DNA of 1,282 bases from Naegleria gruberi. Its lineage: Eukaryota. Below the pieces are notes generated by a model. The model was not told where the DNA came from. It was given only the letters and a program-made list of their open reading frames with translations, and made no database searches. The stretch lies in the NCBI GenBank assembly GCA_000004985.1, contig GG739458.1. One strand, written 5' to 3'. Below are positions 1 through 1,282 of this stretch, one piece after another (within the stretch, counting starts at the first letter, position 1; each line of letters starts with the position of its first letter). A program made the translations under genes and the position numbers.

Positions 1-519
1 AAATTCAACACAGTAATTATGCAAATATTCAAGAATATAATTTTTTAAGTGCAATTCATTTGTGCATTGAGATAAATACAGTTCAATTTCTTCCCATTTC
101 TTGGAAAGATTTTGAATGGTCAGAGATTGAATAAATTGGAATACACACAACTTTTTCAATTCTATAAATTCATTATTCTGGAATAATCCTAAAATGAATA
201 ATACATTCAAAATTTCGTCATCATTAAATTTCAATTTAATCTCATTATAAAGTTGCGAGTCAATTAATTTTTGAATAATTTGCTGTTGAGTTGAATTCAG
301 AGATGAAATTAGTGGCTCGTTCTTTAAAATCAATTTAGAAAATAATGGTGATAATATTTCAATGAGAGGAATGAATGCATAAATTGAGGTTTCGAATAGT
401 AAATCTCTTGAATGTTTTTTTAACTTGATTTCAAGTTTTTGTGGATATTTAAATCCACCAATATGAGGATTTTTTGATATATCAAAAGTAGAATCACCTC
501 CATGTCCTCGTTTCCATTT
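1..519 (-). CDS. C-terminal continuation of the same gene in the -1 frame (codon starts p=1 mod 3), 3'-partial. Degenerate final NHL blade followed by a non-NHL, probably helical region
   Basis: Every codon from 517-519 down to 1-3 was translated by hand: 173 sense codons, no TAA/TAG/TGA. The peptide starts KWKRGHGGDSTFDISKNPHIGGFKYPQKLEIKLKKHSRDLLFETSIYAFIPLIEILSPLFSKLILKNEPLISSLNSTQQQIIQKLIDSQLYNEIKLKFNDDEILNVLFILGLFQNNEFIELKKLCVFQFIQSLTIQNLSKKWEEIELYLSQCTNELHLKNYILEYLHNYCVEF. The same frame has a TGA at 580-582 (plus 'tca'), so it opens only downstream of the frameshift. There is no ATG in this frame, which argues against an independent gene. Confidence 0.7.
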
Positions 520-551
520 CCAGCAATTGTTATAATATTTCCATTCTCCAA
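420..551 (-). repeat. Frameshifted, degenerate last NHL blade in the window (unit 5)
   Basis: Starts LENGNIITIAGNG, a perfect match to the blade start, then loses frame at 511-513. In the -1 frame it continues (K)RGHGGDSTFDISKNPHIGGFKYPQKL, a degenerate match to GYGGDNGLATSAQLNYPSGVF. Confidence 0.6.
505..516 (-). other. Frameshift point: apparent 1-nt deletion in an A3 homopolymer (plus TTT at 511-513) that breaks the NHL reading frame
   Basis: Minus strand here reads ggaaatggaaacgaggacatggaggtgat. The intact blade 1 reads ggaaatggaaagcagggatatggtggtgat. One extra A would give gga aat gga aaa cga gga cat gga ggt gat, i.e. G N G K R G H G G D, matching the blade consensus GNGKQGYGGD. As it stands the frame gives GNGNEDMEVILLL, which has no NHL character, and reaches TAA at 420-422. 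Confidence 0.75.
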
Positions 552-1282
552 TATTTTTCTCGTTGTGTGATTGTTCGTTTCAGTAATATAAATTTCATAA
601 TTTGTTGAAATAAAAACACCTGATGGATGATTGAGCTGTGCATTTGTTGCATAGCCACCATCACCACCATATCCTGGCTGTTCATTTCCAGCAATTGTTT
701 CAATATTTCCACTCTCATCTATTTTTCTAATACTATGATTGAAAGTGTCTGCAATATATACTTCATTATTTGCTGAAACAAACACGCTGTATGGACGATG
801 GAGCTGTGCAGTTGTTGCAGGACCATTATCACCACTATACCCTGGCTGTCCATTTCCAGCAATTGTTACAATCCTTCCATTCTCTATTTTTCTAATTCTA
901 TGATTGAAAGTGTCAGCAATACAAATTTCATTATTTGTTGAAACAAAGACACTTTGAGGATAATAGAGTTGTGAGCTAGTTGCTGATCCATTATCACCTC
1001 CACATCCTGTCTGTCCATTTCCAGCAATTAATACAATATTTCCATTCTTCACTATTTTTCTAATTCTATTATTATTTTTGTCGGCAATAAAAACTTCATT
1101 GTTTGTTGAAACAAAGACACCCGATGGATAATTGAGTTGTGCACTTGTTGCAAGACCATTATCACCACCATATCCCTGCTTTCCATTTCCTGCAATTGTT
1201 ACAATATTTCCATTCTTCAATATTTTTCTAATTTTATGATTGTTAAAGTCGGCGATGTATACTTCATTATTTGTTGCTGAAA
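510..1282 (-). CDS. NHL-repeat beta-propeller domain, 5'-partial (runs off window end at 1282). Frame with codon starts p=0 mod 3. The ORF-track ORF 420..1220 is the same frame cut short by start/stop rules
   Basis: Five consecutive 55-56 aa units with the NHL pattern I.TIAGNG.(Q/K).GY(G/S)GDNG.AT.AQL..P.(G/S)VFVS(T/A)NNE(V/I)(F/Y/C)IAD...H.IRKI. Codon 1218-1220 is TTG (Leu), not ATG. Hand translation of 1221-1280 gives SATNNEVYIADFNNHKIRKI with no stop, so the gene continues beyond the window. Confidence 0.9.
552..719 (-). repeat. NHL blade-coding tandem repeat unit 4 (168 bp, 56 aa), more diverged
   Basis: Encodes DESGNIETIAGNEQPGYGGDGGYATNAQLNHPSGVFISTNYEIYITETNNHTTRKI. Confidence 0.85.
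720..884 (-). repeat. NHL blade-coding tandem repeat unit 3 (165 bp, 55 aa)
   Basis: Encodes ENGRIVTIAGNGQPGYSGDNGPATTAQLHRPYSVFVSANNEVYIADTFNHSIRKI. One codon shorter at the unit junction. Confidence 0.9.
885..1052 (-). repeat. NHL blade-coding tandem repeat unit 2 (168 bp, 56 aa)
   Basis: Encodes VKNGNIVLIAGNGQTGCGGDNGSATSSQLYYPQSVFVSTNNEICIADTFNHRIRKI. Shares long DNA-level identity with neighbouring units, e.g. 'tatttttctaattctat' and 'ttgttgaaacaaagacac'. Confidence 0.9.
1053..1220 (-). repeat. NHL blade-coding tandem repeat unit 1 (168 bp, 56 aa)
   Basis: Encodes LKNGNIVTIAGNGKQGYGGDNGLATSAQLNYPSGVFVSTNNEVFIADKNNNRIRKI. The DNA core 'catttcc(a/t)gcaattg' recurs at plus 515, 683, 851, 1016 and 1184 (spacing 168, 168, 165, 168). 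Confidence 0.9.
1221..1282 (-). repeat. 3' part of a further upstream NHL blade (unit 0), cut by the window edge
   Basis: Hand translation gives (F)SATNNEVYIADFNNHKIRKI, matching the VFVS(T/A)NNE..IAD...H.IRKI half of the blade consensus. Confidence 0.8.

Follow-up and report, generated by a model that had tools for sequence, protein, structure and literature searches.

We found that an entire orphan Naegleria gruberi scaffold of 1,282 bp (contig GG739458.1 of assembly GCA_000004985.1), called the window here, very likely carries on its minus strand part of a gene of an NHL-module-BTB family, with the reading frame broken by a one-base gap; the encoded protein is probably of the cullin-3 (Cul3) adaptor type. 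Read in the direction of the gene, the window holds five NHL blades (positions 1280 to 513), the blade end and a linker (507 to 424), and the first part of a helical module (423 to 1), and the gene extends upstream past base 1282. By sequence comparison, the gene belongs to a Naegleria-specific multigene family with the order six-bladed NHL propeller, helical module of about 180 residues, linker, BTB/POZ domain, and BACK-like helices, and N. gruberi has at least 10 paralogs of this family. The helical module is the conserved middle domain of these already deposited, uncharacterized NHL-BTB proteins.

Coding status of the open frame

A sequence-only reading of the window had described positions 519 to 1 as a 173-codon open frame lacking both ATG and stop, with chance odds low enough to imply coding constraint. 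Translation confirmed this frame on the minus strand (minus frame 1), where it is the portion downstream of the frame junction of a 193-codon run; the nearest upstream stop lies at 582..580, no further stop follows down to base 1, and the 193 residues include no methionine. The peptide strings quoted in the sequence-only reading all occur in this translation. With the stop frequency of 0.086 expected from the strand's own composition, the probability of meeting no stop is 1.9e-7 for 173 codons and 3.1e-8 for 193, and in 5000 mononucleotide shuffles of positions 1..579 the longest open run in the six frames had a mean of 55 and a maximum of 137 codons, with 0 of 5000 reaching 173. The remaining frames of 1..519 are full of stops. 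The open frame, at 1..507, is real coding sequence, since over 169 residues it is 99% identical to NAEGRDRAFT_74363, and it is also 73% and 50% identical to two full-length paralogs. A ciliate-type genetic code was also considered and rejected: in both frames Gln is encoded only by CAA or CAG, minus frame 1 contains neither TAA nor TAG, and the source is Naegleria.

Relatives of the predicted protein

An exhaustive HMMER search with the tail (the part past the junction) over 1.84 billion representatives returned 24 relatives. The closest, P0121 (NAEGRDRAFT_74363; XP_002670676.1; UniProt D2VZ53; 392 amino acids), matched with an E value of 7.5e-102 and 99% identity over all 169 residues, with only two amino-acid differences, and P0122 (NAEGRDRAFT_47424; 762 amino acids) matched at 1e-37 with 50% identity, the tail corresponding to its residues 353-531. 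The 22 more distant relatives (E ≤ 1e-3) came from N. gruberi and N. lovaniensis proteins and from ENA, JGI, and Logan contigs, and a profile search added the full-length N. gruberi paralogs P0149, P0150, P0152, P0154, and P0155. Identity to the tail is 73% for P0149, about 50% for P0150, P0152, and P0154, and 30% for the N. lovaniensis protein C9374_010655 (P0132). These Naegleria proteins are uncharacterized and carry the names "predicted protein" or "BTB domain-containing protein." Six residues conserved in the family are all present in the window (D, 405..403; P, 348..346; F, 342..340; Q, 273..271; K, 156..154; C, 12..10).

As the sequence-only reading had held, the tail corresponds to no catalogued domain, with no match in Pfam and no meaningful match in NCBIfam or PHROGs, and a literature search on Naegleria NHL/BTB or NHL-BTB architectures gave nothing relevant. 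Scans for exact 41-mers in contigs of viruses, metagenomes, and prokaryote genomes found no match, the source being a eukaryote that those sets do not include. A word-indexed homolog search with the tail returned nothing at E ≤ 10, even though the 99%-identical P0121 is a representative in the same collection; we attribute this null to the tool, because the exhaustive search found that protein in the same collection, and nulls of word-indexed searches on AT-rich, K/N/I/L-rich (low-complexity-like) proteins are not to be trusted. Given the 99% protein identity, the window copy is, on the sequence evidence, either NAEGRDRAFT_74363 itself in another allele or haplotig or a duplicate that arose from it very recently. 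A parallel case is seen in P0151 (on a 236,320-bp scaffold) and P0154 (on a 23,652-bp scaffold), whose C-terminal 390 residues are about 99% identical, which points to haplotypes that were assembled separately, or to very recent duplications, across the family.

A missing base between the NHL and module frames

As deposited, the window does not join the NHL propeller to the module in one frame: minus frame 2 spans 1280..423 and ends at a TAA (422..420). In contrast, all full-length paralogs are uninterrupted across the junction ("IAGNGKRGHGGDSTFD"), and P0121 reads IAGNGKRGHGGD in one frame (given more fully as ...NGNIITIAGNGKRGHGGDSTFDISKNPHIGG...). The motif IAGNGxxG[YFH]xGDxxFDxxxxPHxG is encoded in a single frame in P0121, P0122, P0149, P0150, P0152, P0154, and P0155; in P0122, P0149, P0150, P0152, P0154, and P0155, GDS/A.FD....PH.G was found directly after the last IAGNG. 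When NHL-bearing paralogs were compared with the window by tblastn, 8 of 8 gave the same two-part alignment, in which frame -3 ends at 504-519 and frame -2 starts at 441-573 and runs to base 1-7, with the switch at 513/507, and residues 329-330 of P0149 must fit into the 5 nucleotides at 512..508. Restoring one base in GGA AA_ CGA (513..510) gives the sequence of P0121 from the window and places an NHL propeller ending in IAGNGxxGxxGDxxFDxxxxPHxG directly before the module. The missing base would most simply be one A of an AAAA run, with GGA AAA CGA becoming GGA AAC GA. The 31 codons at 515..423 (GNEDMEVILLLIYQ...KSS), which continue the NHL frame past the junction, are out-of-frame read-through matched by no paralog (tblastn) and not real protein. 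These comparisons bear out two proposals of the sequence-only reading, that the NHL and tail frames are split by a frameshift and that the tail is part of the upstream NHL gene and not a separate gene, since full-length paralogs encode both parts in one frame and the 99%-identical gene has a single frame at the junction. That reading had also named homologs with this region in another frame as a sign against it; the relatives read the junction from NHL to tail in one frame.

The NHL part of the window is 100% identical to a public partial gene model, P0001 ("predicted protein, partial [Naegleria gruberi]"), 243 amino acids long, and because this model stops at a donor-like site, an intron had to be weighed against a frameshift. 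Introns are possible in genes of N. gruberi, a heterolobosean eukaryote. Short introns do occur in Naegleria; in N. lovaniensis about half of the genes carry one or more, and their median length is 80 bp (PMC6125883). P0001 ends exactly at 498/497, where an intron with the donor GAG|GTGATT would begin. However, splicing at 497 would remove GHGGDSTFDISKNPHIGG, which is in frame in P0121, P0122, P0149, P0150, P0152, P0154, and P0155; the paralogs align continuously over 507..430 (tblastn); and no relative uses an intron at GTGATT (497..492). We rejected this intron, which we regard as very improbable, on the grounds that the residues encoded by 507..430 are kept in frame in these seven relatives. 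Programmed -1 ribosomal frameshifting is more improbable still: the shift needed is indeed -1 and adjoins an A-rich stretch (U GGA AAC), but U GGA AAC is not a slippery heptamer of the form X XXY YYZ, and the junction is in a single frame in all relatives, the 99%-identical one included, so that none of them needs a shift. Thus, the stop of P0001 at GAG|GTGATT is not an intron donor, because one base is missing between 513 and 510. In a corrected annotation, the end of the P0001 model is a false splice donor, the 243-residue model continues across the one-base gap into about 170 further residues, and the window gene belongs with NAEGRDRAFT_74363.

Whether the base was lost in the genome or in the data is a closer question, and we lean modestly toward a read or assembly error rather than a very young inactivating lesion. 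The loss of a single base is a typical read error if it fell in an A-run, as it would if the Lys codon of the intact copies is AAA, and the copy lies on a leftover scaffold, 1.3 kb long, of an assembly in which 1977 contigs make up 784 scaffolds, with a GC content of 35% and an N50 of 160 kb (PMC6125883). The 169 codons downstream of the frameshift contain no further lesions, and all six conserved residues are intact; this intactness is uninformative, however, because 99% identity leaves no time for decay either way. If the frameshift were real, which we consider quite possible although less than even in our estimate, the window copy would be an NHL-module-BTB gene that recently turned into a pseudogene or null allele. 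Such a reading gains from the state of the closest relative, since P0121 also looks damaged: it starts with MKYTLPT, the +1 frame of a blade end NEVYITD, the NHL protein P0022 ends exactly in ...NNEVYITD, about 4 extra nucleotides creating a TGA are implied before P0121, and P0121 is without about 40 residues of the BTB core. In addition, the family is large and recently duplicating, a setting in which pseudogenes are common.

Several further observations concern the P0121 locus. P0022, which contains NHL repeats only, lies on a scaffold of 236,320 bp, the same length as that of P0121. The MKYTLPT start is the +1 frame of AAT GAA GTA TAC ATT ACC GAC and is followed by DFNNHK, and the implied P0022-P0121 junction is ...ACCGAC TGAC TTT..., the additional bases creating the stop (...ATTACCGAC TGAC TTTAAC...). 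Judged from the protein sequences, a frameshift has thus probably divided a single NHL-module-BTB gene into the P0022 and P0121 models. This pairing is open to some doubt, in that P0154 joins P0022-like blades to a P0151-like tail, and is still the likelier one by overlap logic. The BTB-core residues that P0121 lacks are found in all paralogs (columns 340-378 of alignment A1, in which relatives were trimmed at the module start), and the gap reflects either an intron miscalled in the public model or a true deletion.

Domain architecture of the family

BTB/POZ and BACK-like helices follow the module in P0121 and in every complete relative, and the window scaffold ends inside the module. The sequence-only reading had taken the module as the C terminus of the protein; instead, judging from the relatives, the protein would go on past base 1 for about 190 residues, made up of a linker, a BTB/POZ domain of canonical type, and BACK-like helices, and the window therefore shows the middle of the protein. 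Pfam assigned both NHL and BTB to P0122, P0126, P0131, P0132, and P0140, and precomputed Pfam assignments gave the same pair for P0149, P0150, P0152, P0154, and P0155. P0128 has a long N-terminal region and a BTB domain with no significant Pfam NHL match, and in P0121, P0124, and P0125 Pfam found BTB only, after the module. Alignment A1 shows a conserved LKK(H/Y)xRD, the module, the linker, the BTB domain, and about 90 further helical residues. The C-terminal half (alignment A3) matches solved BTB-3-box/BACK structures of Cul3 adaptors, with KBTBD2 at 3.5e-10 (profile positions 6-146), KBTBD4 (positions 6-167), KEAP1, and SPOP (7-144). Foldseek searches with the whole model matched SPOP, KBTBD4, A55-Cul3, KEAP1, and KLHL3; the BTB-core gap of P0121 lowers these whole-model scores.

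The architecture that had been thought to go unrecognized in the window is already present, as intact NHL-module-BTB genes, among the uncharacterized predicted proteins of the N. gruberi and N. lovaniensis proteomes. The sequence-only reading had also suggested a search for homologs that share the NHL and helical-tail architecture. Such homologs exist among the full-length paralogs, but a BTB domain always lies beyond the tail, and several relatives have no NHL. Members with only 0-100 residues ahead of the module still have BTB, and because several relatives have module and BTB without NHL, the module goes with the BTB half and not with the propeller. From these sequence comparisons, the module and BTB domain seem to form a cassette that is combined with different N-terminal domains. 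The proteins P0124, P0125, P0129, P0130, P0135, P0137, and P0141 have module and BTB and no NHL, and N termini in this NHL-less subfamily are short and Ser-rich, ankyrin-like, or possibly membrane-spanning.

Predicted fold of the helical module

We used AlphaFold2 to model residues 52-392 of P0121 (23 sequences), with a mean predicted local distance difference test score (pLDDT) of 88.8 and a predicted template-modeling score (pTM) of 0.71. In this model the module is all helical except for a two-residue hairpin, and it is followed by a low-confidence linker and the beta/alpha core of the BTB domain. Modeled alone (188 residues, 25 sequences), the module has 11 helices, with a pLDDT of 92.1 and a pTM of 0.86, and is thus predicted to be an autonomous compact domain. 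The expectation that the tail is alpha-helical is therefore supported by the model of the 99%-identical protein. The alternative that the tail simply closes a sixth propeller blade is answered in part: since the module alone is predicted as a compact domain, the tail does not merely close the propeller, but the ~25 residues that directly follow the shift (GHGGDSTFDISKNPHIGG...) still complete the last blade and form a linker, and the helical domain starts at about LKKHSRD (423..).

The predicted fold of the module is most similar to BTB-BACK units, so that the module may not be a new fold. The fold comparison also ranks KLHL22, KBTBD2, KLHL11, KBTBD4, gigaxonin, and KEAP1, and the hairpin of the module together with a 7-residue and an 8-residue helix mirrors B1-B2-A1-A2 of the canonical BTB domain in the same model. 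As a lead only, a nearly invariant [AS]-P-x-F at this helix junction of the module resembles the S-P-x-F of SPOP and KEAP1. Several results weigh on the other side. The structures were predicted for P0121 and not for the window, which differs by two substitutions and stops inside a helix. In Foldseek, all matches of the module had E > 2, with TM scores of 0.40-0.48 at a root mean square deviation of about 5 Å only to the SPOP BTB/3-box and NPR1. None of 25 module sequences matched Pfam BTB at E ≤ 1 and one member weakly matched BACK_BPM_SPOP (E = 0.0013), hhalign gave the module a probability of 2% against the family's BTB half (2.8% when four solved BTB domains were added), and the module profile against PDB sequences gave only a chance match to PhoQ (E = 1.5), so that no sequence method ties the module to BTB. 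On balance, we slightly favor the module as a cryptic or degenerate second BTB-BACK-like unit, put forward as a structural hypothesis and not as family membership.

Comparison with known propeller and BTB proteins

NAEGRDRAFT_74363 and its paralogs have the same junction motif as the window gene and the same order of NHL, module, and BTB, and only the window copy is without one base at the blade/module junction. Among better-known proteins, LZTR1 has a propeller and two BTB-BACK units, with an N-terminal six-bladed propeller ahead of BTB, so that the usual order, BTB-BACK-Kelch, is reversed (PMC8154269). The Naegleria proteins likewise have the propeller before BTB, and they would have the same domain count and order if the module is BTB-BACK-like; of the two BTB-BACK units that this requires after the propeller, the second is clear from Pfam and profile matches, whereas the first is indicated by fold comparison only, with the sequence tests against it. 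They differ in that LZTR1 has a Kelch propeller where Naegleria has NHL and in that the first "BTB" of the Naegleria proteins is unrecognizable by sequence and almost purely helical. The likeness is probably convergent domain shuffling, since no homology to LZTR1 was shown.

SPOP/MATH-BTB and KLHL/KBTBD proteins match both Naegleria halves best by structure, and they are also the top sequence matches of the C-terminal half. Their logic is the same, in that a substrate-binding domain is joined to a BTB-3-box/BACK unit that binds Cul3 and dimerizes, but their substrate domain is MATH or Kelch, C-terminal in KLHL proteins, and they lack the extra ~180-residue helical domain before BTB. NPR1, with BTB, a BHB helical bundle, and ankyrin repeats, is a plant transcriptional coactivator with different downstream domains and 11% identity. 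In the TRIM-NHL E3 ligases (such as TRIM71, TRIM32, and Brat), the NHL propeller is the target-binding module of a ubiquitin-ligase-related protein. There, NHL lies at the C terminus, behind RING, B-box, and coiled coil; neither RING nor B-box was seen here, and a ligase link would be through BTB and cullin-3. An NHL homolog from Acrasis kona, P0006, is named "E3 ubiquitin-protein ligase" by its source.

By analogy with BTB-3-box proteins that carry a substrate-binding domain (SPOP, KLHL/KBTBD, and LZTR1), the protein is probably a ubiquitin-ligase adaptor and would act as a substrate adaptor of cullin-3 ligases. In such an arrangement, substrate binding would fall to the NHL propeller, and both dimerization and cullin binding to the C-terminal BTB/3-box, while the helical module may be a rigid spacer or else a second, degenerate BTB-BACK unit that spaces and orients the propeller relative to the active BTB. 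The module could also add an oligomerization surface, as in LZTR1. A fuller version, in which the module is a cryptic BTB-BACK unit that has lost both the beta-sheet and any sequence likeness and the family consists of NHL double-BTB cullin-3 adaptors that Naegleria put together and expanded on its own, is tentative, and we place it a little short of an even chance. If the cryptic BTB-BACK reading is true, the module defines a new, uncatalogued, divergent BTB subfamily, and the family is a protist counterpart of LZTR1 with NHL for the Kelch propeller. A degenerate BTB in this position would widen the known divergence of the domain, add a second independent layout with the propeller first and two BTBs after, and be relevant to the evolution of cullin-3 adaptors. 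Apart from that question, an uncharacterized family, found here only in Naegleria and environmental contigs, links an NHL propeller to BTB-BACK through a domain absent from Pfam. The family varies the theme of propeller-plus-BTB adaptors by combining an NHL propeller with an uncatalogued, possibly BTB-derived domain.

NHL repeats and other features of the window

In the NHL frame (1280..423), Pfam identified NHL (PF01436; E = 7e-26, 89.3 bits against a cutoff of 20) and TEN_NHL (PF25021; E = 5e-26, 91.9 bits against a cutoff of 27.1), while the tail frame (519..1) had no Pfam NHL match. The blades of the window are 62-68% identical to the NHL parts of the paralogs, although the tail is 99% identical to P0121. 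At the DNA level, positions 493..1276 form a tandem array with a 168-nucleotide unit, 4.7 copies, and 79% matches. Coordinates of all features are given in Table 1.

Table 1. Features of the 1,282-bp N. gruberi scaffold
Feature	Position	Strand	Basis or remark
NHL beta-propeller repeats, five IAGNG blade motifs, minus frame 2	513..1280	-	Translation, Pfam, tandem repeat, paralogs
Public partial gene model P0001, 243 amino acids	498..1226	-	Ends ...NEDME just before GTGATT (497..492), donor-like
Frame junction, minus frame 2 to minus frame 1	510..513	-	GGA AA_ CGA; intact copies encode G-K-R
End of last NHL blade and linker, GHGGDSTFDISKNPHIGGFKYPQKLEIK, with family motif GDSxFDxxxxPHIG	424..507	-	Aligned with paralogs
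TAA ending the uncorrected NHL frame	420..422	-	Translation
Conserved module, predicted all-helical, LKKHSRD to ...NYCVEF	1..423	-	Scaffold end cuts about 140-150 residues into a domain of about 180 residues
Full stop-free frame	1..579	-	193 codons; 579..514 overlaps the NHL frame and is open by chance only
Sub-threshold Rfam matches	54..146, 423..476, 933..988	+	Chance level

Rfam searches of both strands gave only sub-threshold chance matches (ceN42, mir-7918, and sR18; 18-21 bits against gathering thresholds of 42-80). Open reading frames of 47 amino acids recur about every 168 nucleotides in several frames on both strands and are echoes of the repeat, not genes. Past its alternate-frame start, the N terminus of P0121 reads DFNNHKIRKILKNGNI, which is identical to the first blade of the window (about 1250..1203) and not to the last (ETNNHTTRKILENGNI), and P0121 then goes on like the last blade of the window (ITIAGNGKRGHGGD; window positions 1200..1262 and 513..560 were compared with P0121 residues 1-32). 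Relative to the window, the P0121 locus thus seems to be short of four blades (about 670 nucleotides); blades may have recombined unequally, the haplotypes may differ, or a repeat may have been collapsed in the main scaffold. Finally, GC content falls near position 500 of the window, from about 0.35 in the NHL part to about 0.25 in the module, because the amino-acid composition of the two parts differs; the frequency of G is 0.33 in the NHL part versus 0.16 in the module at codon position 1 and 0.20 versus 0.04 at position 2.
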